64,000 nucleotides of DNA from Azolla caroliniana (GCA_043228905.1 JBHGNT010000017.1:18786001-18850000), one strand, 5' to 3'; positions 6,301 through 53,232 are shown, counted from the first letter of the stretch. The notes: generated by a model not told the origin, from the letters alone. Program-made: numbers and translations.

Positions 6301-8620
6301 CCAAAGTGCCAACCCTTCATGAAGGCCCTGCCCACAACACGAGATCGGTTTCACGGGTAACCAACACCTCTCGTTCTGAATCCACCGATTCAGCACAGCC
6401 GAATGGCTCGGCTTCCGACCATCCGACATCTATACCCGGTGCGACCAATCCAGTCATACCTCGAAGATCCGAGAGACTGTCGCAACCTTCGAAAAGATAC
6501 TCTCCTGGAATTTTCTTTACCGACGCCGGCGAATTGACGTCTTACGAAGAAGCATCGACATCTGCCGACTCAGCCACCTAGCATCTGGCGATGGAGTCGG
6601 AAATGCAGTCCATTCACGCAAACAAGACTTGGGACTTGGTCGAATTACAGAAGAATCGGCGTGCTCTTCCGTGCAAGTGGGTCTATCGACTAAAAGAGAC
6701 ATCCGACTCAACCAACCCAAAGTACAAGGCCCGATTAGTTGCAAAGGGATTTCGACAAGAACATGGCATCGACTTCGACGAAATCTTTTCACCAGTGGTG
6801 AAAATGACAACCCTTCGTTTCATGCTCGACATCGTGGCCGCCGACAACTTGGAGCTGATTCAGCTAGATGTAAAAACGGCATTCCTCCACGGTGACCTAT
6901 AGGAGGAAATCTATATGGAGCAGCCGAAAGGCTTTGTGGCATCCGGCCAGGAACATCTAGTTTGCTGACTCAAGAAGAGTTTATATGGCCTGAAACAGGC
7001 ACCCCGACAGTGGTACAAGAAGTTCGACGACTTCATCCAATTGGTCGGCTTCTCCAAGAGCGATGAGGACCACTGTCTCTTCACCAAAACAGCTCAAGAC
7101 GGGTCTCCCGTCTTCCTCATCATTTACGTGGATAACATGCTACTCTCCGGTCGACATGTCGGAGAGCTCACTGAACTCGTTCGGAAACTATGGTTGAAGT
7201 TTGCCATGAAGGACCTCGGTCCGGCAAGACACATACTTGGTATGAAGATTAGTCGGCATCGCGATAAACAACCACTTTTCTTGTCTCAAACCGACTACAT
7301 CGGACGTGTCTTGGAACGCTTCAACATGCGCTCGGCCAAGTCTGCTTCGACCCCGCTCCCCATTAACCTTCGACTATCTCATCGAGACTGCCCGACATCC
7401 GGTCCGGAGGGGGAAGATATGAAGTCAGTATCGTATGCACCGGCAGTCTGCTCCCTTATGTACACGATGGTCGCGACACGGCCTGATGTTTCTCACGTCG
7501 TAGGAGTCGTCTACAGATTCATGCACAACCCAGGCCGATCGCATTGGAATGCAGTCAAGCATGTGTTCAAATATCTAGTTGGCACAAAAGACCACAACAT
7601 TCTTTTTGGCCCGAACTCAACCTCAGGCGTAGTTGGTTACACCGACTCGGACTTCGCCGGCTGCGTGGACAGTCGGAAATCAACAACCGGATACTACTTC
7701 AAATTCGGCAATGGAGCAATCTCGTGGAAGTCGAAACTCTAGGAGTGCACAACCACCTCAATGACCGATTCAGCAGAATATGTAGTCGGGTTCGACGCAG
7801 CAAAAGAAGCCTTATGGCTCAGTTGGCTGGTGCACACGTTTCGACAAGTCGACTCCGACTCGGCTCCAGTTGTCTACAGTGACAGTCAGGGTGCTATTGC
7901 TTTGTCAAAGAATCCGGTTCACCACAATGCCTCCAAGCATATCGACGTTTGATATCACTTCGTTCGGGACTGCATCATTTCAAGGAAAATCGGTCTCGAG
8001 AAGATATCCACAACCGATAATGTCATAGATGGAATGACCAAGTGTCTTTCGGCGGATCGTTTCCGGTCCCTTCGGCACCAGATGGGTGTAACGAAAAATC
8101 GGTCTAGTTAAAGTCAGACACACAGCACAAGATGGTTTCGGACAACCGACATCGGTCCTTTGAGGATCGGCTTCAACTCTTCCGACCCGACTGGTTCGGT
8201 CTTCTGTCTTCAGATCTTGCCGACTCTAACAAAACCGATCTGTCCGATAAACCTTGTATATACCTGTAATTTCAGATAACCCGTGTATACACCCATTACG
8301 GGGGAGTGTCGAATACAAGTGTATAATGGCTGTATTCACATTGTCCCTTTGGACAGCCCAAGTTTGGGCTATTTTTGTAAATAGCATAAAGGGCAGTTGC
8401 CCTAGGATAGTCACTATATAAAGTGATTTTGTAACCCTTAGATGGGGTTGTTTTTGTTGGTGGTGGTTATTTTGTAACTGTTGATATTGAGAAATATAAC
8501 GTTTCTTTTGTGCCTCTCTCTCTCTCTCTCTCTCTCTGTGTATTGCACATTCATATACGCAAGTTCTTCACCATCACAAATGTTGTTTGTTCTTCCGCAC
8601 TGACGACCTTGTCCCCAACA
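3029..8620 (+). mobile_element. Ty1/copia LTR retrotransposon A (full length, decayed)
   Basis: LTRs 3029-3403 and 8307-8620 (TG...CA); TSD CTATT at 3024-3028 and 8621-8625; PBS TGGTATCAGAG (tRNA-iMet) 3406-3416; PPT 8298-8306; domain order gag-PR-INT-RT-RH. Confidence 0.97.
4088..8111 (+). pseudogene. Disrupted gag-pol of copia A
   Basis: Fragments with zinc knuckle CNYCKKPGH, protease WLLDSGAS, integrase VHSDVCGP, RT YKARLVAKGF/IYVDNML and RNase H YTDSDFAG, broken by many stops and frameshifts. Confidence 0.93.
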
Positions 8621-8636
8621 CTATTAACATTCCTAT

Positions 8637-11600
8637 TGAAGAGAATTGCGCAGAATACTGCTTGGCCACAACCGAGTCTTGAATCACTTCAACGAGAATG
8701 AAACACAGAAATGGGAAACAGAGAGTGAACGCATGTACACACACACACACACACACACACACCGATACAGAGTACACAGGATGTTTACGTGGAAAAACCA
8801 TGGGAGCCCACAGACTCCAAACTAACACTATGAAGAAAGAGGGTACACTCAGAGACTCAGAGGCAACGACCTCGAGCTCAGTTTCTTCGCCAAGCGGCGG
8901 TTACAACAAAAACCGTTTTGTATCTCACTCACTCTCTCTCTTTGTCACTCACTCTGTACAACAGTTATACATACAATAATATAACAACCACCACACATAA
9001 ATTGATTGCCCTATGTCATATTTATACTTATATGAACTTAGGGCTATTTACAAATATAGCCTCAATAAGCTTACTCAAAACATATTTACAAATATGTCTT
9101 CCGGTTCTCACCGGGTTCATCCGATCTGGTTTCCGGATCTCTTCCAGTTCTCACTTGATCCATCTAATCTAGTTTCCGAATCTCTTCCGGTTCTCACCGG
9201 GCCCTCTTCATCCATAACCGGATCCCATCCAGAGGGACCAACAATCTTCCCCTTCACTCCAGCATGGGATGTCTCGCCAGCCCGATCCGCTTTCGGCACA
9301 CATTCAATTTGTTGGTTGTCAACACCTTGGTCAACATATTCCTCCGTGTGAATCTTTGTTAACACAAACTCTTGATCTTCTACTCTCTCTTGGATCCAGT
9401 GGTACCTCCGTTGGATATGTTTTGTCTGGGAATGGTAGGCCACATTCTTCGCAAGGTGGATGGTATTTTGACTATCGCAGTAGAGTCGGTATTCCTCCTG
9501 TTGGATCCCTAGCTCTCTGATGAAGTCCTTCATCTAGATTGTCTCCTTGTCGGCTTCTACAACTGCCATGTACTCCGCCTCTATGGTTGACAAAGCAACC
9601 GTCTTCTGCAGCCTCCACTGCCATGATACCGCTCCCCCTGCATAAGTCATGACATATCCGGATGTAGACTGGCTGGTATTTGCATCAGCCGACATATCCG
9701 AATCCGTGAATCCATCAAGTTGGGGATTACCAGAGCCGAACTGGAGGCACATACTCAAGGTGCCTTTCAGATACCAGAGTATCCACTGGACTGCGTTCCA
9801 GTGCTCTTTTCTGGGATTGCTCATGAACCAGCTCACCACTTCGACTGCATATCCGATATCCGGCCAGGTACATACCATCGCGTACATCAAGCTTTCGATG
9901 GTAGAGGCATATGGTATCTTCATCATATCTGTCTTCTCTGTCTTTGACCTCAAACTTTGTTTTCCAGATAGCTTGCAGTTTTTCGGAAGTGTCGATCCGA
10001 CCGGTTTCGCCTCCAACATGTTGAACCGTTGAAGCACTTTTGTCATGTACTTCTCCTGTGACAACCACAACAACTTCTTCAACGGGTCCCGAATGATGTG
10101 CATTCCCAATATTGGTCTTGCCGAACCCAAGTCTTTCATTGAGAAGGTCCGGTTTAGAGCCTTCTTCAGCATCCGAATCTTGCCTTGGTCTCGTTCGACG
10201 ATCAACATATCATCCACATATAGGAGGAGTATCAGGAAATCTCCTCCATCAAATTTCTTCACAAACACGCAATGATCAGCCAACGTCTTGTGGTACCCTT
10301 GGTCGGTCATGAAGGAGTCGAACTTTCGGTACCATTGCCGGGGAGCTTGTTTCAGTCCATATAAGCTCTTCTTTAGCCGGCACACTAGGTGCTCCTTCCC
10401 TTTCTTCTCAAATCCTTCCGGTTGATGCATGTAGATCTCTTCTTCGAGGTCACCATGGAGGAATGTCATCTTGACATCCAATTGTTGTACATCGAGGTCC
10501 ATGCTTGCTTCTATGCTCAATACCGTCCGAATGGATGTCATCTTTACTACTAGGGCAACGATCTCATCGAAGTTCACTCCTTTCTTCTACTGGAAGCCCT
10601 TCACCACAATTCGGGCCTTATACCTTGGTGAATTTCCGGCATCTCCCAGTTTCACCGTGTACACCCACTTGTTCCGGAGTGCTATCTTCCCTTTCGACAA
10701 CTCCGTCAGTTCATATGTGTGATTCTCATGTAGGGAATCCATCTCATCCTGCATGGCATTCAACCACTTGCAGTTGTGGGCGTCTCTCTTTGCTTCTTCG
10801 AAGCTTTCCGGCTCCCTCTTATCGGTTAGCAACACATGCTCTGCATCCGGAAATCTCTGGGGGGCTCTTCTCTCTCAGAGAGGATATCTCCGTCCTTGGT
10901 TTCTGACTATCGGTTCCTCTGTTTGTTCCTCATCTGAATCCGATTCGGGATCTTGTCCGGTTCCGGTGTCTCCTTCTTCTTCTTCTTCTTCGATCAGTTT
11001 GGTTTCTTGTCTGTATCCGGCCGGTTCGTCGAGTGTCATCCGGTTTTCAACCGGGTATGTCCTTGTGTCCTCAAGCTGGTTTTCATTGGATGATCCGAAG
11101 TTCATCACCTTCGTCTCCGACTCCCAATCAGCAATGGTCTTGTCTTCCATGAAGACTATGTCTCGACTCCGGAACACCTTCTTGTCGACCAGATCCCACA
11201 CCCAGTAACCGAACTCATCATCGTCATATCCAAGGAATATGCATGGCCTGGACTTAGAATCGAACTTTACTCTCTTGTCCTTTGCTACATGCACATATGC
11301 GAGACACCCGAACACCTTCAGATGCCGGTAAGACACGTCCTTACCGGTCTATAGTCTTTGCATTGTGTCTCCGTCCAAGGGGACTAAGGGTGATTTGTTT
11401 ATCACATAGGTCGTCGTCGTCAACGCCTCAGCCCAAAAGGTCTTGGGTAACTTTGCATGTGCTAGCATGCTCCGAACTCTATCCATCACGGTCCGGTTCA
11501 TCCGTTCAGCCAACCCATTCAATTCCGGCGTCTTAGGCAGGGTGAATTGGAGCCAAATTCCCTTCGACCGGCAGTACTCCTTGAACTACCCCCGATATTC

Positions 11601-13693
11601 TCCCTTGTTGTTCGCTCAAACCGCCTTCAGCTTCCAGCCGGTTTCTCTTTCCACTCTCGCGTGGAGCTCCTTGAAGACGGATAGCACCTGATCCTTCGTC
11701 TTCAACGGTGAGACCCACAGCTTCCGGCTGTGGTCATCTATGAGCATCACGAAGTACTGCGATTTGGCATGTGACTTCGTGTCCACTTGACACACATCAG
11801 TATGCACCAGCTCCAGTGGTGCATTCCATCTCATCGGTGGTCTTGGCTGGAAGGAGTTTCGGTTTTGCTTGTCGACAAGACAATCAGTGCACTTCTCAAG
11901 TTGCATGTCCTTCACCAAAATGAGATTGTCTTCGACAAGTCTCTTCATTTCCATCTCACTCATGTGACACAGTCTTTTGTGCCACAACTCACCGACAGTG
12001 TCGGATGCTACGTTCACTTCTTCCCGGCATATCCGAGCATGCATCAAATACATCGTGTTGACCTTCCAGGCTCGAGCCACTATTAGGATCCCTTTGTTGA
12101 ACTTCATGACTCCATTCCGGATGCTACCCGTGTAGCCTTCATCATCTAGCCGACCAGCTGATATGAGGTTCAGTCGAACCTCCGGAACGTGTTGGACATC
12201 CTTCAGCAACAACTTGCATCCGGTTGGTGTCGTCAACAACACGTCTCCTATGCCGATGATTCGACATGTGCCTTCATTCCCCATCCGGACGCAACCATGA
12301 TCACCGGCTGTGTAGGATGAGAAACATTTCCGATCCGGTGTCAGGTGGAACGACGCTCCGGAATCGACAACCCATGTTGTCTCATCGTCGACAAGGTTTA
12401 GCTCATTCTCCTCGGTAAGGAGCATCAGTTCTTCTTCACTTGTCGCGATTTCTGAGTAGACACTTGGATTTTCGTCTTGCCTTTTCGGAATGTTAATAAA
12501 TTCTGATTCCAATTTTGCTTACCGACGTTCCTTTCCGATCTGGGCCTCTCCGGTCCGAACCGTTTTGGTCCAAACTCTTCTTGGAATCGGTGGTGCCGGT
12601 TTCTTTCTCTTTTCGGAAATGCCAACAATTCTTTTGGAAGTGCCCTAGCTTCCCACAGTAGAAGCAAGTAGGCCTCCCCCTTGACTTCGACCTTGTCCCC
12701 GATTTGTCCCGGTTTTGAGGACTCTGATACCGGCCTCTTCCCCAATTGTGGTTATCTTTCGTGACTAAGGCCTTCGGATCGGTTCCGGACTCCCGGTCCT
12801 TACGGCGAGCTTTTTCATCTAGCAGGGTTGACTTGACTCTTGCTAGGGACAATTGTTTTCCTTCCGGCCCGGCGTTGCCCAATGTGACAACTAGTGTCTC
12901 CCAACTATTCAGGAGGGAACCGAGCAGGAGTAATGCGAGTACCTCATCGGCGAGAGGTACTTCCAACGAGGTTGCTTGGCGGATCAGTCCCTGGAAGGCA
13001 TTCATGTGCTCCGCCATACTAGAGTCGTCCTGGTACCGGAGCCTCACTAGCTTCCGGAACACCAAAACCCGATTGACAACATTCTTGTTCTAGAACATGA
13101 CGCTGATCTTCTCCCAGAGTTCATGAGCCTTGCTCTCTTCATTGAAGTTGTTGTACAAGCTCATGTCCATGAAGCACCGGATGTATGTCGTCGTCTTCAT
13201 GTGCATCACCTCCCACACTGTGGCGTCGATCTTATCCGGTCTCTTGTCCCCGAACTGAACCGGCAACCAAAGATCTTTAACCACCATCATATCCCTCATC
13301 TTCGATTTCCACACTGAGTAGTTGGAGCCGGTGAGCTTGAACATGCCATCGAACGATTCTTCCATTTCCTATGTTGTTCACTCTGATACCAGTTTGAAGA
13401 GAATCGCGCGGAATACTACTTGGCCACAACCGAGTCTTGAATCACTTCAATGAGAATGAAACACAGAAATGGGAAACAGAGAGTGAACACACATACACAC
13501 ACACACACACACCGATAGAGAGTACACAGGATGTTTACGTGGAAAACCCTAATAGGGAAAAACCACAGGAGCCCACAGACTCTGAACTAACACTATGAAG
13601 AAAGAGGGTACACTCAGAGACTCGGAGGCAACGACCTCGAGCTCAATTTCTTCGCCAATGGCGATTACAACAGAAACCATTCTGTATCTCACA

Positions 13694-16262: not shown

Positions 16263-19200
16263 ACTTTTTATCTCCTATTTTTAGCTAAGACCCAGCGACC
16301 TTCTAATCGTCATATCTCCCTCATCATAGCTCCAAATTTAGTGATTTAAAAATCTATAGATAGCTCTCTTTACAAGCTTTCTAACCCATATTTAAACATG
16401 ATATTTGAGTCACACACGAAGGAGTTATGACCATTCCTGTTTTACTGTTTTTTATGGTCCGCTTTTTCTTTTTTTACTTTTCTCTTGGTTTCGTACTTTT
16501 ACTTTTGACTTCTTCCTAAGGTCTTGGTTCGTGTTCTTAGCCTCCAAATGTGAGTTATCCATGCTTTATAGTCTTCTAATGTTCAATGGCTTAGATTCTA
16601 AAAACACTTTCACATTTAGCCTTCCCCCTTGCTAGAGGCTAAGCCATTTATGGCAAAGCATTTAATGGTAGTACTTAACAAACGAAAGCTCTCTCGCCAA
16701 TCTCTTGGCTATAGACAATGGGAGAGATATAATAAAAAAGAAAATAAAAAGATGTGAGTAAAACCCCCGCTAATCAGTAGGAAAAAAACTCACACTTCTA
16801 AACACACACGCACGCACACACACATTGACAATTGCCATCACCATCTTTCTCCTTGTCAACACAAAGAAAGAGGTTACTACAATTATTATGTATTTGTCAA
16901 CTCTCCATACACAAGTAGGGCCATGGGATACATAACTCTTGATAGAAGTAAGCATGTCAACATATGAATGAATCTTTCGAGTGAGCAAACCTTTTGCACA
17001 AATACCTTCAAAGCTTCGAGACTTGTTAGAATGATTATCTTTTGAAGTACGTTGATCTTTGAATCATCCACATCTTCTTGGCACAACACATTGTTCACAC
17101 TACCTTGTTTTGTATAAATGACCATTTGATCTACAATCTCATCTCGGAAAGGAAGTGAAATTTGTTCTCATTTGGTCGAATCATTCAAGGGTTTGAAATT
17201 GATCTCATTCTTCTTTGGAACCAAAACTATAGGTGACACACACTTCAAATCTTCCATCTTATAATTGGAACTTTCTTGTAACCATGTGTTGAACTCTTGC
17301 ATAAATTCTTCCTTTTGTTCAACACTCAATTGCCGAAGCTTTGGGGAAATTGATACACTTTCCTTCAAATTGATGTGGTATTTGTTGCAAGCTTCTCCTC
17401 TTATCCCAGTACATAACACTATTTGTACTAACTATTACACACAAATCCATTAATGTCTATACATACCAACTACAATATCACTCTACATAATTAAACTACG
17501 TTTGTAACTTACTCACACATAATTCAATTCACTTCAAAATGTGTAGCTATTATAAATAACTTACAATGCCATTCATATAGTATGTGCATATATCTTCCAC
17601 TAGGTAAATGAATTGTGCACGCAACAAAGCTTTCACTTCCTTTAATAAAGCCTCCTTTTGCACGTGACCTAGCCTTCGCAACTTTTGTGCAACTGGAGTT
17701 GTACCCTCCTTTAGATTTATGCGATGTTGGATGACATCTACACCCCTAATATGAGCATAATCACTAATAAAAAGGTTAGGAAATTCTGAAATCAAATTAA
17801 TAAATTGTTGCCTCTCTTGCCCTTTAAGATCTTTAGAAATCATCTTCTCTTTCTGCTCCATAGTAATTAAACCTCCTTCATTATCTTCTTCCTTCAAAAC
17901 GACATATGATGTTGTCATTTCCCATTCTGATGAGGAATCTTCACTTTCATCACTTTCATATGCGGACCCGCTATCATATTCAGTTATTCCATCCTTTCTT
18001 TCTCAATAAGTTGTTGCCGCATATCATAATGTAAGCTCACTCCTTTTGATGACGTTATGGTCATCAAACCTTTGCTCCAATCTTGGACAACATTGAGTTC
18101 TTGCATCCATGGTCTTCCTAGTACCAAAGAATATGACGATCCTTTTAGTGGTATTACATGAAAATCCATCGAAATGCTTACCCCAAAACACTTGATGGCC
18201 ACATCCTCCACTATGCCAATGCAATGGACCACAGCCACCCTTGCTGAAGATGACCTACTAATAGGAATTCCCACTTTGTTTACCACAAATTCAGAAATCA
18301 AGCTTACTCTAGCACCACTATCAACCAAGGCATCTTTGATGTATGGTTGGTCGTATGTCCTTTCGATCTTCTACTTGCACGATCCCCACATAATGCACGG
18401 TCTTCCGACTTTGGCGAATACTTGCAAGCCGCCCCCACTCCCTTCGTAATTTCGGAGATAATTGGAGAAGTTGTGGCCATGTTATTCTTGGTCAACTTGA
18501 TATCAACTCATGCTTCAAATTGAAAGCTTCTACACCTTCTCCCATAGAAATATCCTCCATCTTTATCTTCCTTTTAGAGCGTCTCCTTCTCAATTTCTCC
18601 TTTTTCTCATTCTCTCTCAACTTCTTTTTGTGTCGTGATGCACTAGATTCTCCATCCACTTCTTTCTCCTTTTGAGAGGCTCTTGTCCTTTCCATTGGAG
18701 CTACTTCACAAACATCATCACTATCATCAATAAAATTAAGAAGATTCACATTATGAGGAATTGTAGGAACCTGAGCCATAGGAAGTGTTATGCCTCCTTC
18801 AACTTCATTGTTGTTAGGTCGTTGTCCATTCCTTTGCACTTGATACATGCCTCTTCCCAGTGCCTCTTTGTTGTCTATGAGGACATCTTGTTGAGATGTG
18901 TCCCTCCTCTTGACAAGAATAACAAATTACACCTTGATTCCCTCTAGAGCCACCACCATCGGGAATAATGTTGTGAATTGCTTGGGATTGTTGCAAGTGG
19001 GCCATCACTTCATCAAAGCGCCAATTCACCAATGCCATTGTATCTTGTTCACTCTTCACTTGTTCCACTTCTTGGGATATACTTGTTGGGTTTATTGTTG
19101 TGGTGGTATACACATTTGGAAACACTTGTCCACCATGCACAATTGAAGATGAGGCTTGAAAGTTGGCACGAGGCATCAAATTTGCACCCAAAGCTTACAT

Positions 19201-23057: not shown

Positions 23058-25691
23058 ATGGAGTTCTGGGGTATGTAACTCTTCTATCAATCTCTCTCTG
23101 TCTCTCCCACACACACACACACACAGACACACATATCTGTCTTCTTCTTCCGCCCGTTTCTGCATGCTATTGTTTTTCAATAGTTTAGAGGTCAGAGAGA
23201 AGCGTCGCTGATCGTGTTCCTTTTATAACGGTGAATGATTTTTCGTTCCCTACACTCTTTATGGTATGATCTGCTTGCTCAAGTTTTGACTCGAAAGCAT
23301 AGCCAAAACTACTTGGGTTTCCTCTCCTTTCTGCAACCTTATGGCTCGTGTATGATGCTTCCTCCCATCCGAAATGACGGAAAACTGTGTTTTTTGGTTA
23401 TTGATTCGATGCCAAATCAGTCCTGTCTAAGAAGTGTGGCTAATCATCCTTCATGCCCGTTTTGAATGAAGACTAGCTGCTTCTCTGTCTGTCTGTGTCC
23501 TATCTCTTCTGCTAGTTTGTGTTCACAAGCTGCATATTTGTGCTGGGAGATCTTGCAACAAAGCGATGGCAATCATGATTGATTGCGAGAAAACATGGTA
23601 GCTCATTTTGGCGGTTTCGATTCGTGCAGGTGTCGAGGTTCCTAGCGGTAAGCCCGTGGCTTGTGATCCTGATGATATCTCCTACATCCATATCTCTCAG
23701 GTATCATCACCATGTTTCCTTATACAATCATCCTTTGGATGCTCTTTCTCTGTCTCTCTGTATTTCTTTCTGATCGTGGAAACTGGTATCTTTATCTTGG
23801 ATCAGGCTGCACTGGGAGAGAGAACAAGTGGGGAAGGTAAGGGTGAGCGAGTGGTGTTGAAGCTCACTGTTGACGGTAGCGAGTTCGTCATTGCTACCCT
23901 CTCAGCGGGGAAGTGCGAGCAGACCACCTTCGATCTCATCCTAGACCGAGAGTTCTTAATCTCCCATAACGGTTCTAGCAGTGTATATCTGACAGGATAT
24001 AAGACCGATGCTGTTAGAGATGAATATCCTTTCTTTCTTTCTTTCTTTTCTCTTTTGATTCTCTCATCTTGTTTCAGGAGACGCTATTGAGTTTGTGGTT
24101 TCATGTGTAGTAGTTTTGTACATTGTAACTCCTTGATTCTCTCTTCCTTTACGGACTTCTCCGATGAGGATGGGTTCTCAGGTAATAACAATGCAGAGTG
24201 AGTTACTGCCTCTTCATGATGATCCTTTTTTGGCGTGATTTGATGAATTGAATGTAAATTGAATCCAGACTCTGAAGAGGAAGAGGAAGAGGAAGATGAA
24301 GATGACGAGGACGAGGACGAAGATATCCCTACGCCAATACAGATATCTGCCAACAAGAATGGTAGTATATATATCTATCTGTCTGTTGTATGGAAGAAAT
24401 GCTCCCCTTTTCTCTGCTTCCTTCTGTTTTCTGAATGTCCTATCCAATTATACAGGTAAGCTGGCACGCAAAGTGAAAGAGAAAGGTGGAGATGGTGATA
24501 AAACCACCACCGCATCTGCGAAAGGGAAACCCTTTGATATAAATATTAATGGAAAAGCAGATGAGGATGAGGATGGTGAAGATGAAGATGAAGATGAGGA
24601 CGATGACAGTGATGTAGATCTAGTAAAAAGCCATACCTTTTAACTATTGATTGTAGTGAATGACATGACGTTTTGCAATCACATAATATATATGTGATGA
24701 ATGTCATCCAGGGGGTATTAATAGTCTCACGTTCAATTGATGATTGATCTGGTTGTAGGATATGCTGGATTCTAGAAGCGGCAGTGATCTTGATTCTGAT
24801 GACTCTGACAACGAGGATTCCTCTGAAGAGGAGGATCAAGCTAAGGTATGTAAGACCCTTTTGCGTGAAATTGGTTCATAATAAGATGAGAGGGATTTTA
24901 TTTATACATATATATTCCCTTGCGCAGGATCAGAAGAAGAGACCATTCCGTGGTGCCCAAAATGCTTCTGCAGGCAAGAAGATTAAGGTTGCAACAACCC
25001 AGGAAGATGGAAAACCAGGTCGGTGTAAATCTTCTGCTATGGCGTGTCTTAGTTATTTGATATAGTGTTAATATTATCATGATAATGTGCTAAATGCCTT
25101 TATTTGTAATAGGGAAGAAGGGAGCTAAAGCCCCTATTACCACCACCACCACCACCACCACTCCCAAGCAGCAACATTTGCAAAATGGAAAGAAAGATAA
25201 GAAGACATCTGCAAAAGAAAACGTAGTGCTCTTGCCCTTGCTTGCTTGTTTGTATTTTGGCGGTCTTTCCGTCCAACACGTGGATATAGGCGTTTACTCA
25301 ATGTGGAAATCCAAGTAGTTTTTTCATCTTTTTGATAGTGCTCTAGAGAAAGTCCTAGTTTTGGTTTTCTCTATCTTCATTGGCCTGTCAGTTCAAGTTG
25401 TGCTCTCCTAGAAACAATGCATTTACAATGGTTTAGGCCCTTGGATATTTAAATTGCTCTTCATCTTTCGTTATCAGGATGCACAACCTGCAATTCCCAA
25501 CTCTGGAAAGAAGGCTGGACGATTTGTGTGCTCACCCTGCAACAAGTAAGTGATTTCTTTGTTCAAAGGTTTTAATTTCTGTGTGAAGTGGCTCTAAGTT
25601 CTTACGTAATATTGTTATCATGTGTACATACATCAGGAATTTCAATAACGAAAGTAGTCTAAGTCAGCACATGAATGCAAAACACAAGTAA
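23058..25691 (+). CDS. HDT: HD2/HD-tuin histone deacetylase with C-terminal C2H2 zinc finger, 11 exons
   Basis: MEFWG start; exons 23058-23070, 23630-23700, 23806-24023, 24153-24181, 24269-24361, 24456-24622, 24759-24845, 24928-25018, 25113-25222, 25478-25545, 25637-25691; YIHISQAALG, FDLILD, SVYLTGY, acidic tracts, CSPCNKNFNNESSLSQHMNAKH. Confidence 0.93.
24024..24152 (+). other. U12-type (minor spliceosome) AT-AC intron in HD2
   Basis: 5' site ATATCCTTT, branch-like TCCTTGAT ~24130-24137, ends TTTAC; removal restores the frame (RDE|DFSDEDGFS). Confidence 0.9.
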
Positions 25692-27246: not shown

Positions 27247-28305
27247 ATGGCTTCTCTCAGCCCTTTGTCGTTTGTAGCGTTTGAATGCAAGGAAAAGCCT
27301 GCGTTCTTCCTCAGTCCAGCCGCTGTAAGGCGATGGCAATGGCGATGGCGATGGCGTGCCTGCGCATCCCCTCAAGACTCGACAAATGGTGAGAAGTCCA
27401 CACTCTCACCATCACCATCACCATCACCATCATCATCATCGTCTTCTTCTTCTTCTTCACCATCGCCATCCCTTCCGAAGAAGCCCAGAACGACTGTGGA
27501 AAGCACGGATTGGATCGCCTCCTCTTTAACCAGAAGGTTCGGTCTCGGTGCCGGTCTGGCATGGGTGGCTTTCTTGGCGTTTGGGGTCATATCAGAGCAG
27601 ATCAAGACGAGGCGAGAGGTGTTCTTGGAAGAGCAAGGAACAAGGTGTGCCCCCCCCCCCCGCCCCCCCCCCCCCCCAAAAAAAAAAAGAACAAAAATTC
27701 ACTATTGTCTTTCTGTAGTCGGATGCAATCGGGTTAATCATTTCATTTCCGTTCATTGTTCCTCATAGATGGTGGAGTATTTTGCCTCTCTAGGAGGGAG
27801 GTTGCTGGATCCTTCTTTTTTTTTTATTCCCTGTAGCATGCATGGAACACTGAGCTAATTAGGGTTATGGATTTGCAGAGATGTTGTGCAGGAAGTGGTG
27901 ACCTTGCCAAACAAGCTTGAATATGTGGATTTGAGGGTGGGCGGAGGATCGAGCCCTCGTGCTGGAGACTTGGTAGTGGTGGACATGGTGGGCCGAGTTT
28001 TAGTAAGAAGCAATAATGAGGATGGTGGTGGTGGTGAATACGGCCCTCCGTTCATCGATACATTTGCCCAGAAGCGGCCGATTGCCCTCGTGTTTGGGCG
28101 CCGTCCGTTGGCACCGTCCATCTGCCCTGGTGTGGAAGAGGCCCTCCAAACTATGCGTGTCGGCGGTAAACGTAAAGTCACAGTACCTCCTGAACTTGGC
28201 TTTGGCACCTCCGGTAATATCCTAGGTGATGGCGTTTCGATCCCTCCTGATGCCACTTTGGAGTACACCGTGCAACTTCTACGAGTCTCCATTGCACCTT
28301 CTTAA
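27247..28305 (+). CDS. FKBP17-2: Chloroplast FKBP-type peptidyl-prolyl isomerase, FKBP17-2-like; exons 27247-27644 and 27879-28305
   Basis: Transit-peptide-like N-terminus; STDWIASSLTRRFGLGAGLAW...GVISEQIKTR; FKBP domain (DLRVGGG, MRVGGKRKVTVPPELGFG, IPPDATLEY); GT-AG intron. Confidence 0.88.
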
Positions 28306-29531
28306 GTGTTTTAAGAAACTTGATCTTGGGAATAGCTGGTGTATGTAGTAAGTCATCTTCTTGATGATGATGCTCACTTGCACGCTCTCCAGGCCCACCT
28401 TAGAGTGTGCTCTATCACTTGCATCTTCTTAAATGGAATCATGACATTCAAGATGTATAATATGCAAGTTTTAAGATTGCCTTGATTCTATTTCCTTTTT
28501 TGTAGTTAATTTAAACTTCGCTGGCAGTAATTGGTGTATACAAGTGGATTGTAATAATTCTTCATTTAATTTGGGCCACCAAATGGATTTGACAAACTAC
28601 TAAACGATTGTGTAAGTGCATATCAAATTACACAGAATTAGGGATATATGATTGTGACGTTTAAGGGCAATTATCAATGTGTTTTGAAATCACTAGCTTG
28701 GGAACTCAAGCCAAAATGAACTCTATATGAAGCATTCTAGCACAAGTCTTGAACATACTGTTCAGTGGTAAATGTCATATCCAATCTGAGTGTTCATGGA
28801 GACCATCTAAACTAATTACCTATAATGGGAGTGTAAATGTGAACATTTTCATATAGACATTAAATATGTGGAGATATTGGTGTCATTCACTTCAATAATA
28901 ATCTGCCCCCAATCAATCATGATTTCTCAATTAAATTGCAATAGAAGGTTGCGCAGATCAGATTTGAAATATCTAAATGTTCTGGTTAAGATAAAAAGGC
29001 CCAATGGAGACCCAAAGATGTGTTAAACCTTGAGGTGTAGAAGGGAATTCCAAATCAAGAGTTTAGAAAGTTGTAGGTCAATGAGAATGGTGCCCCTAGT
29101 GCAATATGCAAGGTGCCATTTGATCATTCTTTGCAAAATTCACTCTTAGTGGGGCACTAATCTCTTTTCATCCATTAAAACCTTTTAACCACACAGCATT
29201 TTGCTAGAGTTATGAATTCTTCGAAGAGCACTAGGAAAATGAGGGGGAAAGTGACAAGCAAAATCCTGCCATATCATACAATGAATGAACGATATTGAGG
29301 TCAAGATTATGGGCAGTCATAGCCCACCTTGACCTGACCGGACCGAACAGGACAGGACCAAAGTCACACTATGTATGTACTATTCATGAATACCCCTGCA
29401 GTAGTGACATGCAATTTGGGCGGGTGACTATCATGCCGGACTAGCAGATAACGCAACACCCACATACACAGAACAGAGCCTTCTTTTTGGCCATAGACTT
29501 TGAGGGTTTAGCAGACCTTTGGAGAGCATCC

Positions 29532-31420
29532 ATGGCGGTGGTGGTGGAGAATGAATGTGTTCTGATGCACGCCGGTGGATCCATATCTCTGGAGAAGAGG
29601 AGCCTGAGCACCCAGGATATGGAGGACGGATCGGTCCTCATCCGGACTCTGCTTGGCGAGGTCTGCGGCACAGATGTTCATCTCTTCCATGGACGCCTTG
29701 ACACCGTGCCTTATCCAATCATACCTGGCCATGTGGCTGTCGGCCGGGTTCATACCTTGCTTGGCTCCATTCGTGATGTTGATGGTTCTCTGGTAAATTC
29801 TCTCATCTTACGTCCTGAGCAGATCCTTGTTGGCAGATTTTCATGTTCATATGGGTGCATTCAGTAAAAAAAGAGTAGGAAGGTATGTATAAACGAAACA
29901 CATGCTAGTGAGGAGTCAGGGCTCCTTTTTTAGCTCATGTAAAATGTCAAAGAACCTCACTGACATGTTGGTTCTCACTCTAAACTGGATGAAGAAGAGC
30001 TTATTTGTAGATGGGATCATTTCGGTCATGCCCAATGCATGACACTAAATAACATTTTAGTGTTGTAGGGTTCTTTCACTTCAATCAATTACAGGAAGGT
30101 TTTCGTTATTCTTTTCTTGTTTTGTTTTTTTACAGGTCACTGAAGGAGATATTGTCACATTTTTGGATGTTATTGATACCTGCAATGCTTGTGTATTATG
30201 CTTGGTAATGAGGTACCTTTTAGATAATATCGTGCATTTTGTGTCCTCGTGTATAAGTTTCATTTCCTGTCACTAATAGGTTGACAAGCAATCAACAAGG
30301 TGTCCAAGAAGAAGAGTCTTAGGAATCACATGTACTGCAAATGTCTCAAGCATTACTGGCCTTCTTGGTGGCTGGTCATCCTACATATACCTTCCACCAA
30401 ATACAAAGATTATTAAGCTGCCACATAATCTATCACCACAAGTATTCATGTCAGGAGGTTGTGGGTCAGTGAAGTCTATAATTCACAGTTATTTATCAGG
30501 TTATTTTCAGAAAAGCTTTAGATGGTTGTGCATTTACATTTCGGTAATGACAGGCTACCCACTGCTTTCCATGCGATAGACAGAGCCAATATTAGGTTAA
30601 TGGATCGGGTTGTCATACAAGGTTCAGGTCCAGTTGGTTTATTGGCTGCATTGCTGGCTCAAGCCAGTGGAGCTCTTCAGGTGTTGCATTGATTATACAT
30701 TAATACAAATAATATTGTGTTGTGCAATGCACCTCAGGGTACAGCTCAAAAAAATCCATTCTGGCCATGCATCAACACTCTGAACTTTACTTATTTCAAG
30801 AGTCTTTTGAGTATTTATTCTATTCAAAATAGTGAGAATTCTTGTTAGAATGCCCCAGGTAATTGTCATTGGCGCTCCAGCACACCGATTGGAGACTGTG
30901 AAAAAGTTTGGCATTGCAGCTACTATTAACATCGAAGAGGTACAATTTCAATGTTGAATTGTCTACCGTAGCTTGAGAGATTATGGCAAATATGCTAATG
31001 TCATTATGTTTTCAGTACAGAGAAGCTTCAGCAAGAAAAGCCGTGGTTAAAGAATTGACAGGTGGCAGAATGGCTGATGTTGTGATCGAAGCAACAGGTA
31101 GGCCAGAGGCGGTGGTGGAGGGGCTTGAGCTTTGTAGGGATGGGGGCACCTATGTTGTGGTTGGGCAATACACTGACAATGGGAGTGTGGATATCAATCC
31201 ACATTTCCAAATCAATCGAAAACACATCACTGTAAAAGGTTCTTGGGGATCTGACTTCAGTCATTTTTATCGGGGTGTGCAATTCATGGCGAAAATGTCT
31301 CATCTTCCATGGGATCTTGTTGTAAGTAGAGCCTATGACTTGAAAGATGCACAAGAGGCTTTAGAATCTGTGGAAAAGCTGGAAGTTTTCAAAGCACTAA
31401 TAAGTCCACAAGCGCATTGA
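29532..31420 (+). CDS. Zinc-dependent medium-chain dehydrogenase (TM0436/5-exo-hydroxycamphor dehydrogenase-like), 6 exons, 375 aa
   Basis: Exons 29532-29792, 30136-30204, 30280-30464, 30554-30680, 30859-30939, 31016-31420, all GT-AG, total 1128 nt in frame; VCGTDVH, PGHVAVG, structural Zn CNACVLC...C, GCGLPTA, Rossmann GSGPVG, VVGQYTDNG. Confidence 0.92.
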
Positions 31421-33509
31421 AACAATATGCATGCCATCTATGCATCAATACTTGTAATTGTCATCATTTAGGTTTCATTCTTACTGGCTACACTATGGGT
31501 TGAGGTAATGATGCGCCCCTTTTGCAGATGTGCAAATGTTTTTATTACATTGAAAGGTTCGCAAACAAATTGATGAGTTTGGAATTCTATTAGAAGTCCA
31601 AGGAAATAGCTAGAACTTATCTTCAATAAATCAAAAAGCCTCCATCACATTATATGTACAAATATGCCAAGCCTTTTGAAAGGCCATTCTCATGGTTCTA
31701 GCAAGTTATATATCTCAATGGTTTTTTGAAGGTTGTTGAAGCAAGTTATGTGATAGAGATTAAGGAAGATGGGGGTATGCAACTATAGATGTTCTGATGT
31801 AACGACCATGAACACACCGAAAGATCGATCTTGAAACAACTTATTTGTTGCATTTGTCTTTCTAGCAAATCTTGATATGATGTCAAAATCAGCATATAAA
31901 TAACCATACTCGATGTTAGTAAAAGAAATGAGAGCATCAGTGCCTAAAAGAGATTAGCAATTTAATGAGTTTGCCAGATAAAGGTAAACAGTGTCCATGC
32001 ATGTCCAATGCTTTATTATAAATGGTGTTTATCATTCATGCATGTGGTACGTGATATATTCACTGGCATCAATTCAGAATAAAATGCATAGCTAGCTTCT
32101 CTGTCTATTGTGGCACCGAACAGAATGAAAAGTCATCTTTTTGACCTAAGATTGGTTTGGACTCACCAATGGACAACTGATGTGCCCTACTTTATTGGGT
32201 TGATTAGATGGGATGATTCACCTCTTTCTGTTGGCCAACATACACGGGAAAGAAAAATTCCATGTAACTTATGCTCTTTGTACATGAAAGTGTTTTTTAT
32301 TTCCATGAATAATTAATAAATCTGTATGCTATCTCCATGGGGCAACTTAGTAATGAGGATGTGATTAACAAATGAGTCTTACAAAGCAACATCCCACTGG
32401 TCTGTCATCACATGTCTCCTACATAGTAACTTCTTCCTCACACATGTAGATGCCTCCAGGCAGGCATAACTTCATCTTAAGATTTATAGCATATTTGTTT
32501 GAAGTAATCAAAATTACCACACTTTATCGGTTACAAATACACACAAAGATGTCACTACGGCATTGTAGTGATCCATAGTTCTCCAATGTAGCACTGCTAT
32601 TCTCAGAGACGACCAAAAGTTGAGAGATAGTGAGGCATGCATGCAGGTAGATGTTTCTTTTATAAACCTCTACATCTGTTACCCATTTATTACGTTTTTT
32701 TAGAGATTAGTAATTTCATCACTTCTGCCAGTTTGGTGATTAGTATATCCCCATCAGCTAGCCGGTGGGAGTGAGAATGTGGGACACGTCCAGTTTATAT
32801 TCTCCTAATTATCCTGATTTACGCTGTACATTTATTATGAAAAGATTTCCTTTTAAGTGGATGCGTGGATGTGACAATGATCTGGAGTAATATTCCATTC
32901 CCTAATACCCAGTGGGAACTAGAGCCAGCTGCAAATAACATGAGTATTTTGTATTATATTGAGCTTCTCCACGTGATGGCAATCCAACTGGGAACCTTGA
33001 TGCCAATAAGCACGACAATAATCATGATGGTCACCATGAAATATAGAGAGGTTGTATCTAGGTTGTTGACGTGTGTGACTGCATGCATACATACACATAC
33101 ATATACATGCATAGTGTGTCTGTGTGCAGCTGCATGTGTGTGACTACATACATATGCACATACACAAACACAGATAGTATATGTGTGTGCATGCCTGTGA
33201 GAATGCTTACATACATACGCACATATACACGCATACAAACTGCATGTCTATGAACTTAATTAAAAATTTGTCAAAAATATTGACTCTAGGTTAAACCCTT
33301 GTTTTTACTAAAACATATTGTACGAAGATAATCAAAATCTTCAGAACACTCAATGCTCTAGCTTGTAGCATACATAGTCTTTCAGAAATACTTTGGTCTT
33401 TGGATTGTGTGCTACTATGCCTAAATCCTGATTCCTATTGTGTGCTTGGATTGTCCAACTTGGCATTTGCAAACAAATTAGAGAGAAACCAACAAGTGAA
33501 CCAAACAGG

Positions 33510-36500: not shown

Positions 36501-37419
36501 CGTCATCTTCAAGCAAAGCTGCTACATCAGGGTCAACACCTTTCACTGAGGGCCCTCGTAGCTGGAAAGCATTGCCACTAACAAGCAAGGCATCACTTCT
36601 GGCTTCCTCGTTGGATGGATTCACATGAATTTTTGATGCATCATATGCCTGGTTAAAATATATCCAATGTTGGCATAATCAATCCCCAACAACTAAGGAG
36701 TTTACAAATTCTTCCAATGTGATAAATTAAAGATATCATTTTCACTCATGTTTCCCTAGAGTGTTCAACATTATGAGCTTTTATAGCCAAGGAGGAGCTT
36801 AGCTAGCTAGATATGGACTGGTTTGCTTACGAAAAACAGATAATGATAGGTCGTAATCCACAATGTGAAAACCAGTGTCGGAAAACATTCCAAATGTGAA
36901 AATCAGAGTAGTGCAATGTGTGGGAATTACGGTGTGAGATGGTAACATATGAAGAATGCTCAAGCAACTAGTGCAATAAATAAATACCTTGACATCGGGC
37001 CGCAGAAGGTCTAGACGGAGGTTGTTATTGGGAACGAAAGAGCCAGTGCGACCAGAAGGCCCAATCTCTCTGAGATGTTGTAAATAGTTGTAACCATCAT
37101 CAGGAAACCCTAGCTCTATAATCTCCTGCCGAGCAACAGTTGTAGCAGAGCTACTACTTTTAGAAGGGACACGCAAGGATCGATCTTTACCTCTTCCTTC
37201 TCCTCCTTCCTCTTCTTCTGCGTCTTCGAAGATGGAACCTTCACTCTCGTCATCGTCAAAGCCTGCCACGTGGCCATGGCCTCCACCCACTCTCATGAAG
37301 ATCCTGTCATGACCGTTTCCATCGCCATCGATATCTCCATAGGCCTGTTCAGAGGAATCCTTGAAGACGAGGCGGAAGGTTGCAGCCTTCTTCTTGTCGA
37401 TGAATTTCTTCTTCCCCAT
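33510..37419 (-). CDS. LTV1: LTV1 (low temperature viability 1), 40S biogenesis factor, 4 exons
   Basis: Exons 37419-36988, 36648-36280, 36125-35508, 33641-33510; MGKKKFIDKKKAATFRL, LGFPDDGYNYLQHLREI, WDCETIVTTFSNLDNHPGKI, ETKEEKKARK|AATK...KKEMKLLY. Confidence 0.93.
34253..34608. mobile_element. hAT-type MITE in the last intron of LTV1
   Basis: TIRs TAGGAATTGGCAA / TTGCCGATTCTTT; exact 8-bp TSD GTCACACC at 34245-34252 and 34609-34616; internal GGCTC/AGCC repeats; TIR resembles the element at 21890. Confidence 0.82.
34604..34880. repeat. Imperfect tandem duplication (2 x ~130-150 bp), each copy with a hairpin
   Basis: TCTTTGTCAC...CAGTAACTAGAA...CACCTTTACAC...GAAAGGTGACTTGA.TAAGCAACATAT occurs twice. 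Confidence 0.85.
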
Positions 37420-37849
37420 TGCGCCACGCGAGATAGCAGAGCAGAGCAGAGCAGGGCAGGGCAGGGCTCGCGAGGCTTATACACAGCTTAACTATATATA
37501 TCCGGATCTTCAAAACTGAGCTCAACCTTTTTCATATTTACCAATCTAGCCCGCCCCCCTGCCTTCAAAACCATTACTAAGTAGTCTCTCCAATTCATAC
37601 TTGCCCAAATTGCATGTCATGAATTTTGGGTTGTCCAATGATAATTATTTTGCTTTGTATCATCTACATGCTTTGCGTTCAATGTGTTTCTTGTCATCTC
37701 CATAATGACATTCCAATAAGAGATCCTCTCTGTCAAACAACGTTGCTATATGGCATAATTTTGACAACGTTGCTATATGGTATAATTAGATTAGCTCGCC
37801 ACACCCTCATAAAATTGGGGAGAAGATCTTGTCAATCCTTCATTTTGCA

Positions 37850-41605: not shown

Positions 41606-41958
41606 ACATCTCATACTGTCGCGTCGCCTCCACTTCTGCGTCGTCTTCTTTCTGTTACAGTTTCTTTCTTTTTTCTTCTTTCTTTGCCTGCCATCGGATC
41701 ATCAGACGCGCTCATGCTGTCACCTGACTCCGTGCTTGCTTACTACACACACCCAAGAAGACGAAGACGAAGACGAAGACGAAGAAGCCCTGATTTCATG
41801 TCCTGATCTGCTCAGTATATCCATCCATTTTAAGGAGGAGGAGGAGGAACCGCAAGGCAAGCTCTGGCTACAGAGCAGGACTAGTTAGTTAGTTTAGTTG
41901 GTTGAGTTAGTTAAGTTAGTTACTGGAAGGAGAGCTGGATAGTCCGTCTCCACACGAC

Positions 41959-44040
41959 ATGGTGGTCTTCCACAGAAGGTTCATGGATCGTAACGCGAAT
42001 GGATACTGTATGTGTTTGTTGCTGTGGCTGTGGGTGTGCTTGATGATGGCAGTTTCCAAGGACATGGATATGGTGGTGATGGTGCAGAGCTTGGGGGTGA
42101 ACTGGGGCACACAGGCGTCTCACAAGATGGCCCCATCCTCGGTGGTGCAGATGCTCAAGGACAATAACATAAAGAAGGTGAAGCTTTTCGATTCCGATGC
42201 AGATACTCTGCGGGCACTTGCAGGGAGCGGGATCGAGGTCATGGTCGCCATTCCCAACAACCTCCTCAGAGCCATGACCGATTCCGACCAGGCCGCTGCC
42301 TGGGTCCACAAGAATGTGGCCACCTACATCTTCCAAGGTGGCGTCAACATCAAGTAGGTACTGAATCATCAAGAGTTTTTTTTGCTGCCCATTCATGTAT
42401 CCTTCTGCCCTAGTACTTGGATTCTTGACAAGTTTTAGTTCTCGTGTTTCCATTTGTTAATAATCATCATCATCCCATGGATTCTTGACCCCAAGTTCTC
42501 TAATTTTTCACATGCCATTCTGTTTCCCTGTACATACATATATGGAAGCATGATCTCGTTGTTTAGTAGTCCTCCATGAAGTCTTGGACTATAAGTTTTT
42601 GGGTGAGTTGGTAGCAGCCGCAGCAGACAAGTAAATTAATGATTTTGCTTAAGAGTACTCTTTAGGGTTTGGATAGGTTCTGTTTGAGTTGATCAGTTTG
42701 TTGGACATATTCTTCTTCTTCTGGGTATTATTATATCGTGCCACATAAATATGCTTAAGAGTACATACTCCTTTAGGATCTTGATAGGTTTTTGTTAGCG
42801 TTGATCAGTTGGTTGCACATATTCTTCTTCTCCTGGGTATTATTGTATTGTGCCACATAAATATTGACTGTTTTTTTTTAGGTATGTGGCTGTGGGGAAT
42901 GAGCCTTTTCTGAGGACCTACAATGGAAGCTTCATCAGCCTAACCTTCCCTGCGCTTCGCAATATCCAGAACGCCCTCAACAATGCGAATCTCGGGGATG
43001 AGATCAAGGCCACTGTTCCATCCAATGCTGATGTCCTCTCAGATGCCCAATTGCCCTCCCAAGGAACCTTCCGTGCGGACATCTTCGAGCAAATGATGGA
43101 AATCGTCCAATTCCTACACCGGAATCGCTGCCCTTTCACCGTCAACATCTACCCGTTCATAAGCCTCTATGATAACCCGAATTTCCCAATTGATTATGCT
43201 TTTTTCGAAGGCACTGGGGTGAGTGTAGTTGATGGATTGAAGGTATACAAGAATGTGTTCGATGCAAGCTATGATACGCTTGTGGCTGCCCTTGAGAGTG
43301 CCGGTTTTGGGGACATGCCCATCATTGTGGGGGAGATAGGGTGGCCCACTGATGGCTTTGAGGAGGCCACACCCCACAATGCTCAAAGGTTCAACCAAGG
43401 CTTCCTGGATCATATCCAGAGCAATGCCGGCACGCCGAGCCGCCCCAACACTAATATCAACTTCTATCTCTTCAGCCTTCTAGATGAGGATCAAAAGAGC
43501 ATCGAACCAGGAAATTTCGAGCGGCATTGGGGTGTTTTTCAGTACAATGGAGTGGCCAAGTATCCTCTCTCGATCGTGGGATCCTCCTCTAACAACGGAG
43601 GCAAGCTTGTAAATGCACGTGGAGTTCAGTACCTTCAGCAAAGATGGTGCATTTTGGCTGAGAATGCTGCTAACCAGCTTTATTCCACAAATGTGGGCAA
43701 ATCGGTCACATTCGCGTGTACCTACTCAGATTGTACCTCCCTTGGCTATGGGAGCTCTTGCAATCCGTACCTTGATGCTAGAGGCAATGCGTCCTTTGCG
43801 TTTAACCAATACTTCCAGATCAATAGTCAGAAAGCTGGTAGTTGCTACTTTGATGGCCTTGCCTCTATCACATACAGCAATCCCTCAGTGGGAAGCTGTG
43901 AATTCATTGTACAGTTAGCAACCTCCTCCACTGGGATTAGGCCCGGCCCTTACAATTCACCTCTATTCTACGTCTCTCTATTATTGATGGCGATGTCACC
44001 ACTAACAAGGGGAGGGTGCCATAAAGCTCTCCATTATTGA
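41959..44040 (+). CDS. Glucan endo-1,3-beta-glucosidase (GH17 + X8/CBM43), probably GPI-anchored; exons 41959-42353 and 42882-44040
   Basis: Hydrophobic N-terminus; LGVNWGTQASH, KVKLFDSD, YVAVGNEPFL, IIVGEIGWPTDG, GNFERHWG; X8 cysteine pattern; hydrophobic tail. Start codon uncertain. Confidence 0.95.
42647..42864. repeat. ~105-110 bp direct duplication in the glucanase intron
   Basis: GCTTAAGAGTAC...GTTGATCAGTT...CTGGGTATTATT...GTGCCACATAAATAT occurs twice in tandem. Confidence 0.85.
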
Positions 44041-52911: not shown

Positions 52912-53195
52912 TGTTAGGAATCGATGCTTCGATTCACCTTCACCACTCGGCCACAACCAAGTAATCGCGAATCAATGTAGCAGAAAATAGGAACCACACG
53001 AGAGAAACACACGAATACACAGGGATTAACGTGGAAAACCCTAGATGGGAAAAACCACGGGAGTACAAGACTCCAAACCAACACTATACAAAGAGAAGTA
53101 TACAATGGCGAGCTGCAAGGCGACGACCTTGAGCTCGCTGTCCTCGCCACAGGCGGCGGAAATACACAGAGGCGTCGTCCTCTTCCTCTCTCACG

Positions 53196-53232
<37 letters not shown>

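Follow-up and report, generated by a model that had tools for sequence, protein, structure and literature searches.

Within the MDR superfamily, the catalytic zinc of GSNOR is reported to be bound by Cys, His and Cys together with a mobile Glu that follows the His; in the algal enzyme this Glu moves on and off the zinc, and water substitutes for it in some subunits (10.1101/2020.08.31.275875). CamD, the 5-exo-hydroxycamphor dehydrogenase (FDEH_PSEPU), has been described as part of a small separate MDR group (PMC2792335). By sequence and by fold, the closest solved relative of the gene presented here is TM0436 of Thermotoga maritima (1VJ0), for which our literature search returned no functional study, only a table listing and an unrelated marker. 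We take the CDD group of its relatives to be the one named MDR_TM0436_like. Concerning gene history, a first major episode of prokaryote-to-streptophyte transfers has been described by Ma et al. 2022, as relayed in PMC12448838.

The gene of Azolla caroliniana studied here has the MDR fold and the two-zinc layout in common with plant ADH/GSNOR, CAD and sorbitol dehydrogenase, but it differs from them by an identity of 15-25% only to solved members (a comparison by identity), by a Val in place of the Glu and by another origin. This low identity agrees with the first-pass annotation of the locus, which had placed the protein outside these plant families. Prokaryotic proteins carrying the Gly-His-Val (GHV) motif are, in contrast, 55-60% identical to it.

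Gene structure and surroundings

The gene was analysed within a window of 64,000 nucleotides, by which we mean the whole stretch of DNA under study. Its parts and two neighbours are given below (window positions, strand, description).

27859-28302, +, FKBP_C exon (neighbour)
29423-31655, +, spliced transcript including UTRs, minimum span (contig X1; contigs cannot show true ends)
29532-31420, +, whole gene: 6 exons, 5 GT-AG introns, 1128 nt, 375 aa, single terminal stop
29532-29792, +, exon 1, aa 1-87: start codon, GroES-like domain, Cys45-x-Thr47-Asp48-x-His50, Gly66-His67-Val68
29793-30135, +, intron 1: 343 nt, phase 0, GT-AG; skipped in X1 and X2
30136-30204, +, exon 2, aa 88-110: Asp98; structural-zinc Cys103, Cys106, Cys109
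30205-30279, +, intron 2: 75 nt, phase 0, GT-AG; skipped in X1, X2 and X4
30280-30464, +, exon 3, aa 111-172: Cys118 (structural zinc); Cys171 (third catalytic-zinc ligand, by homology)
30465-30553, +, intron 3: 89 nt, phase 2, GT-AG; skipped in 4/4 runs
30554-30680, +, exon 4, aa 172-214: Rossmann GxGxxG, residues 195-200
30681-30858, +, intron 4: 178 nt, phase 0, GT-AG; skipped in 4/4 runs
30859-30939, +, exon 5, aa 215-241: cofactor-specificity loop Gly219-Ala220-Pro221...Arg224
30940-31015, +, intron 5: 76 nt, phase 0, GT-AG; skipped in 4/4 runs
31016-31420, +, exon 6, aa 242-375 and stop: remaining cofactor domain, subfamily motifs
36802-37476, -, LTV-domain exon (E 1.6e-4, below the Pfam cut-off)

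Contigs of all four public runs compared, from four studies, skip introns exactly: all five junctions were seen in X1 and X2, four in X4 and three in X3. The runs are not on record as RNA, and the transcript evidence is the spliced contigs themselves. X1 is a single contig of 1472 bases that spans 29423-31655 with 0 differences, and exon 1 is likewise covered by spliced contigs. Among the exon differences found in related contigs, 12 of 15 are synonymous, a purifying pattern. When exon 6 was searched against the plant's own 523-Mb genome, the only match was exon 6 itself, and the gene sits on a large, chromosome-scale contig with plant neighbours. It is a real, spliced, single-copy plant gene. 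The 375-aa ORF with five GT-AG introns drawn by the first-pass annotation is therefore exact, all five junctions being present in spliced contigs, and contamination, which had been judged unlikely, is excluded by these contigs, by the FKBP and LTV-domain flanks and by the own-genome match of exon 6.

Several other features were observed in the window. Between 31446 and 31594, one X4 contig skips 147 bases within the 3' UTR, and the skipped piece ends AA..AG, which is not a standard intron. The FKBP_C neighbour is presumably FKBP17, a name consistent with its motif. Separate from this exon, a nucleoplasmin-like domain followed by an acidic stretch lies at 23602-24456 (+), in a gene that is likely of HD2 or FKBP53 type. 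Retroviral-type aspartyl protease and zinc-knuckle matches at 17987-19194 (-) correspond to retrotransposon remains, and a glycosyl hydrolase of family 17 with an X8 domain (beta-1,3-glucanase type) lies at 41920-44037 (+). The GC content reaches 49-56%, with strong skew, at 53000-58000 and 4000-13000, versus a background near 40%.

Protein family and predicted chemistry

The protein shows the features of the MDR superfamily, with ADH_N (E 3.4e-8, exon 1) and ADH_zinc_N (E 1e-14, exon 6) both above the Pfam cut-off and with the catalytic C45, H67 and C171 and the structural C103, C106, C109 and C118 all present. The best PDB match of exon 6 is 1VJ0 (E 1.5e-17). As a stand-in for the window's own spliced protein, the Adiantum orthologue P0002, 80% identical to it, was modelled with AlphaFold; this model (pLDDT 89.9) matches MDRs only, with 1VJ0 as top structural match (TM 0.89, 35% identity). 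Against PDB sequences, P0002 also matches TM0436/1VJ0 best (E 3e-58, the next match being at 3e-21), and TM0436 is indeed the closest structure, as had been suggested by the first-pass annotation. The two proteins are alike in the spacing of the structural zinc ligands (C-x2-C-x2-C-x8-C), in a Cys as third catalytic ligand and in a Gly instead of Asp in the cofactor loop. They differ in that TM0436 has Gly-His-Glu (GHE), lacks the GQYTD, INPH and FLDV motifs and falls outside the GHV subfamily; at 35% identity it is not an orthologue. GHV and the six other motifs quoted in the first-pass annotation are all present in the Azolla protein and GHE is absent, but the motifs had been attributed to TM0436, which lacks most of them, and they are signatures of the neighbouring GHV subfamily.

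Within this subfamily, V or I follows the His in each of the 231 non-plant rows tallied, with L in several further Asgard loci; of the 30 plant rows with a residue at the Glu position, 29 have Val. The zinc ligands are invariant in 66/66 Asgard-clade rows and in 165/165 other GHV rows. Judged by these signatures, GHV marks a separate, uncharacterised prokaryotic subfamily neighbouring TM0436. Our searches found no characterised or solved member of the GHV subfamily, and the ESM Atlas returned generic bacterial MDR clusters only. In an NCBIfam scan, none of six proteins rose above any curated cut-off (HpnZ, Tdh, IolM, IdnD and other equivalogs); HpnZ_proposed (TIGR03366) was the top model for all six, at 107-170 bits against a cut-off of 328, and the proteins are thus not members of it. 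The name CamD has been transferred automatically to some relatives (P0052). As a stand-in for CamD we used a plasmid protein annotated '5-exo-alcohol dehydrogenase', which is 38% identical to the fern orthologue and whose gene lies in no camphor cluster; one P450 was found among 52 neighbouring genes of prokaryotic loci scanned.

Cys45, His67, Cys171, Thr47, the four structural Cys, GxGxxG 195-200, Asp98, Tyr293 and Trp318 are invariant in 231/231 non-plant rows and nearly invariant in plants, suggesting that the enzyme is probably active. We predict a cytosolic, NADP(H)-preferring alcohol/aldehyde oxidoreductase. The catalytic zinc would be bound by Cys45, His67 and Cys171 and the structural zinc by Cys103/106/109/118, with Thr47 and His50 acting as a putative proton relay. 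Since Val68 stands in place of the mobile Glu of other MDRs, the fourth zinc site may be held by water or substrate. In the cofactor loop of MDRs, an Asp usually selects NAD. Gly219-Ala-Pro-x-x-Arg224 occupies the place of this Asp in the Azolla protein and the GHE paralogue of Asgard archaea has the Asp in 7/7 loci, so that NADP(H) is the predicted cofactor. In the model of P0002 the first strand begins at residue 4, which would leave no space for a transit peptide and points to the cytosol.

As to the substrate, polyol dehydrogenases have a Glu at the position of the third zinc ligand. The ADH-type Cys found here therefore speaks against 'L-iditol dehydrogenase', as some relatives are labelled by JGI. 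Nor did we find support for the terpenoid or polyol alcohols proposed in the first-pass annotation, given this Cys and the 38% identity only of the '5-exo-alcohol dehydrogenase' relative. The invariant Asp98, Tyr293, Trp318 and Asp321, positions taken from the alignment, suggest a polar pocket, and as a tentative proposal the reaction might be the reduction, with NADPH, of an aldehyde or ketone that is small, polar and not a sugar. We had also considered that Asp98 compensates for the lost Glu at position 68, an idea that was dropped since the Asgard GHE paralogue has the same Asp.

Prokaryotic neighbourhoods were not conserved and thus yield no substrate. Indeed, among 621 ORFs around 80 loci, the largest family in common occurs at 6 of the 80 loci, and the 52 neighbours scanned (51 of the 65 adjacent co-directional genes and one further) comprise transporters, peptidases, arginase-family proteins, molybdopterin-dehydrogenase FAD subunits and sugar enzymes, with no pattern. 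At Hodarchaeales-type loci (L009, L013, L017, L085, L113), an arginase-family gene lies downstream in several and an MFS transporter upstream in four, a context for which a link to amines or amino-alcohols is possible. At the Gemmatimonadota loci L042, L062 and L059 a molybdopterin-dehydrogenase FAD subunit (by Pfam in 2/3) precedes the gene, which suggests an alcohol-to-aldehyde-to-acid coupling.

Relatives in plants, other eukaryotes and prokaryotes

A search with exon 6 found named orthologues in Adiantum, Ginkgo, Taxus, Diphasiastrum, Selaginella, Marchantia, Riccia, Calypogeia and Mesotaenium, and those of Physcomitrium and Ceratodon came from cluster look-ups. These genera represent a conjugating alga, mosses, liverworts, lycophytes, ferns and gymnosperms. 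Identity to the spliced protein is 62-83%, but 52% for Mesotaenium, whose model is partly mis-predicted. With a profile of 16 plant proteins, 24 plant-clade rows scored at least 577 bits, and the next match, an Asgard archaeon, reached 536 bits. The 120 matches listed in this profile search name no angiosperm, hornwort, Klebsormidium, Chara or chlorophyte; the absences from angiosperms and earlier algae refer to word-based searches with 120 matches listed in each, most rows carrying no name. The plant rows form one clade (100/100) with the algae outside the land plants and the ferns sister to the gymnosperms, and the window's gene groups with the ferns, next to the gymnosperms. The tree of the plant clade follows the plant phylogeny from the conjugating alga through the gymnosperms. 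Because the streptophyte orthologues group together and branch in agreement with the species tree, any transfer must be ancient, and the horizontal acquisition advanced by the first-pass annotation does not stand as a recent event.

Copies were also found in other eukaryotes. One, recovered by a profile search of 50% clusters, belongs to the bdelloid rotifer Didymodactylos carnosus; its proteins P0225 and P0374 have Asp at the cofactor loop, and the gene model looks to keep an intron. A metagenome scan revealed a eukaryote copy with eight introns of 43-67 nt (L159:2393-3926, also L158 and L165), none of which is at a plant intron position, and this copy is placed inside a bacterial clade that includes a Verrucomicrobia row. 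Its short introns look fungal, which is an impression only. The rotifer and L159-type copies fall inside two distinct bacterial clades, each placement having starred support. The GHV subfamily thus appears to have entered eukaryotes at least three times, which makes a transfer plausible for the plant copy too. No other eukaryote was named in the plant clade among the matches listed in three homology searches. Three further proteins, P0070, P0172 and P0424, come from single-gene JGI contigs of 1150-1282 bases, barely longer than the gene, and are possibly transcripts. They lie near the base of an Asgard-rich clade, have GHY in place of GQY and are grouped with Asgard rows in maximum-likelihood trees (98/85).

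In prokaryotes, a scan of GTDB gave at least 595 confirmed stretches; the best 80 of these, which were kept, come from Asgard archaea, Chloroflexota, Armatimonadota, Acidobacteriota, Planctomycetota, Gemmatimonadota and others. At 1e-60, matches occurred in 67 of 301 Asgard genomes: the GHV/GHL type, which is close, in 24 of these and a more distant one in the other 43. All 24 close-type carriers belong to one Asgard class (24 of its 83 genomes), and the close type occurs in 17 of the 24 genomes of the order that contains the Hodarchaeota-labelled genome G002; we read this class as Heimdallarchaeia and this order as Hodarchaeales. The distant type is GHE in 7/7 loci examined and falls outside the GHV subfamily. 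In the same search, none of the 43 genomes (of 301) with this GHE/Asp-type paralogue (L105-L111) also had the close GHV type.

Trees were built under LG+C20+F+G4 from sets of 101, 57 and 78 rows, drawn from 366 rows and later additions. The plant clade, which is nested among prokaryotes with support, joined the Asgard-rich clade at 100/96 (101 rows), 100/98 (57 rows) and 100/97 (78 rows, the bootstrap being not fully settled). This join was recovered after SR4 recoding (SH-aLRT/bootstrap 94.7/86) and after removal of 10% (97.5/100) or 20% (95.2/90) of biased columns, using a smaller row set and columns picked without the plant rows; after recoding or column removal, the monophyly of the Asgard rows themselves is lost or no longer supported. 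FIMNKY content is 0.19 in plants, 0.18 in bacteria and 0.27 in Asgard rows, so that plants are closer to bacteria in this respect and shared composition is not an obvious cause of the grouping. In a FastTree of 388 rows, the sister clade of plants comprises 128 rows, of which 52 bear Asgard labels (with some genomes present twice), 2 bear other archaeal labels and 74 are without a name, among them its two deepest branches; none is a named bacterium. With regard to the basal rows, neighbouring genes were compared with Asgard genomes: one, next to P0185, was without a match in the 5 searched, and another, a hemL fragment, gave a 70% match to an Asgard genome, which is suggestive only. Heimdallarchaeia are the best-supported, maximum-likelihood sister of the plant clade, in a tree that is the best but not proven.

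Origin of the plant gene

The best explanation of these data, to which we assign a probability of about 0.5, is a single transfer from a Heimdallarchaeia-related lineage to an early streptophyte of a gene for a predicted NADP(H) alcohol/aldehyde oxidoreductase. The gene would have been taken up once, in ancient times and before plants reached land; introns would then have been gained, and the gene would later have been lost in angiosperms. The wider statement seems reasonably probable, namely that this is an enzyme of Heimdallarchaeia origin seen, among eukaryotes, in streptophytes only, whether a late Asgard gift or a host relic, from an unstudied GHV family conserved from conjugating algae to conifers and lost in angiosperms. 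The domesticated bacterial gene of the first-pass annotation is upheld in part: a prokaryotic origin is likely, but the best-supported sister, Heimdallarchaeia, is an archaeal group and not a bacterial one.

The donor is not settled, because two of the four bacterial groups put to the AU test survive it. Eight such tests were run, on groups chosen once the tree had been seen. Plants with Anaerolineae (p 0.013), with Armatimonadota (marginally, p 0.049) or with the L159 eukaryote (p 6e-6) were rejected, as was a single clade of all eukaryotes (p 0.002). Not rejected were plants nested with Kariarchaeaceae/Heimdallarchaeota rows (p 0.12), plants with P0070/P0172 (p 0.30), with a Negativicutes-containing clade (p 0.28) and with a Ktedonobacteria/Acidobacteriota/Planctomycetota clade (p 0.145). 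Moreover, in the C20 trees plants branch as sister to the sampled Heimdallarchaeia copies and not within them, so that no donor is pinned. It is thus possible, if somewhat unlikely, that an unsampled bacterium was the donor to the early streptophyte, the Heimdallarchaeia gene having come from the same bacteria or the grouping being a single-gene artefact, with the function unchanged. The subfamily is far more diverse in bacteria, its root falls among them, and two other eukaryotes acquired it from bacteria; more than 800 plant genes of bacterial origin are reported in a review (PMC12448838). No column is strictly diagnostic for plants and Asgard, and softer counts give 18 columns for plants with Asgard versus 14 for plants with bacteria. 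Against such a donor speak the absence of named bacteria from the 128 sister rows and an Asgard grouping that withstands mixture models, recoding and site removal.

Descent from the Asgard host through the last eukaryotic common ancestor, with retention in streptophytes only, is unlikely, although a topology with plants as sister to all Heimdallarchaeia is what is expected if eukaryotes branch just outside Heimdallarchaeia (PMC12222021); an alternative view has Hodarchaeales as sister of eukaryotes (PMC10307638). The gene is common in the Hodarchaeales-type order (17/24), and P0070, P0172 and P0424 could be eukaryotic transcripts, with P0070/P0172 as a possible sister to plants. However, such a relic demands loss in chlorophytes and in every other eukaryotic supergroup, and the three homology searches named no further eukaryote in the clade among the matches listed. 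Both non-plant copies nest in bacteria, one of them without an intron position in common, and their joint clade with plants is rejected. The plant stem is short as well (0.48, for a plant crown depth of 0.44 and an Asgard stem of 0.11): a stem about equal to the crown depth would be short for roughly two billion years inside eukaryotes, and at the crown rate the time represented by the stem would fall far short of that between the origin of eukaryotes and plants, which would fit a long stay in a slower prokaryotic lineage. A passage of the archaeal gene through a microbial eukaryote of the P0070/P0172/P0424 group and from there to streptophytes is very unlikely. It would suit the small size of these contigs, the short N-terminal extensions of two of the proteins, the failure of a metagenome scan with P0070 peptides to recover the P0070 contig and the acceptance of P0070/P0172 as sister to plants by the AU test, but the eukaryotic nature of the three is a guess and the maximum-likelihood trees put them with Asgard. 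Practically no weight is left for a recent lineage-specific transfer, for contamination or for a divergent plant ADH/CAD/SDH member. The 55-60% identity to prokaryotic proteins might favor the former two, against which stand the spliced contigs, the chromosome-scale contig with plant neighbours and the orthologues across streptophytes; the 15-25% identity to the plant families speaks against the last. A viral vector was also considered and rejected, as viral contigs gave 18 pattern matches, 0 of them confirmed.

A transfer from a Heimdallarchaeia-related lineage would be of wider interest, Heimdallarchaeia being the archaea nearest to eukaryotes. The gene offers a test case for whether Asgard archaea exchanged genes with eukaryotes after eukaryogenesis, and for how often patchy 'Asgard-like' genes are relics or transfers. 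It further suggests that non-flowering plants conserve an enzyme activity which Arabidopsis-centred work would overlook, with knockout-ready orthologues in Marchantia (Mp2g01880) and Physcomitrium. Our literature search found no report on the gene or on an Asgard-to-plant dehydrogenase, and a prior listing in Ma et al. 2022 is possible. Marchantia, Ginkgo and CDD identifiers gave no match in the main texts searched, the identifiers tried gave none in the supplements of PMC11906373, PMC11096116 and PMC13419835, and alcohol dehydrogenase is not mentioned in PMC12747264.

To conclude, the gene resembles the first-episode transfers of Ma et al. 2022, as these are set out in PMC12448838, in its timing, its range from Zygnematophyceae through land plants, its introns and its prokaryotic sisters. 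It differs from them in that the donors reported there are mainly bacteria and fungi (PMC12448838), and the word 'archaea' is absent from the main text of that review. In kind, this is the known ancient prokaryote-to-streptophyte transfer; what is new is the GHV family in plants and its Heimdallarchaeia sister group.
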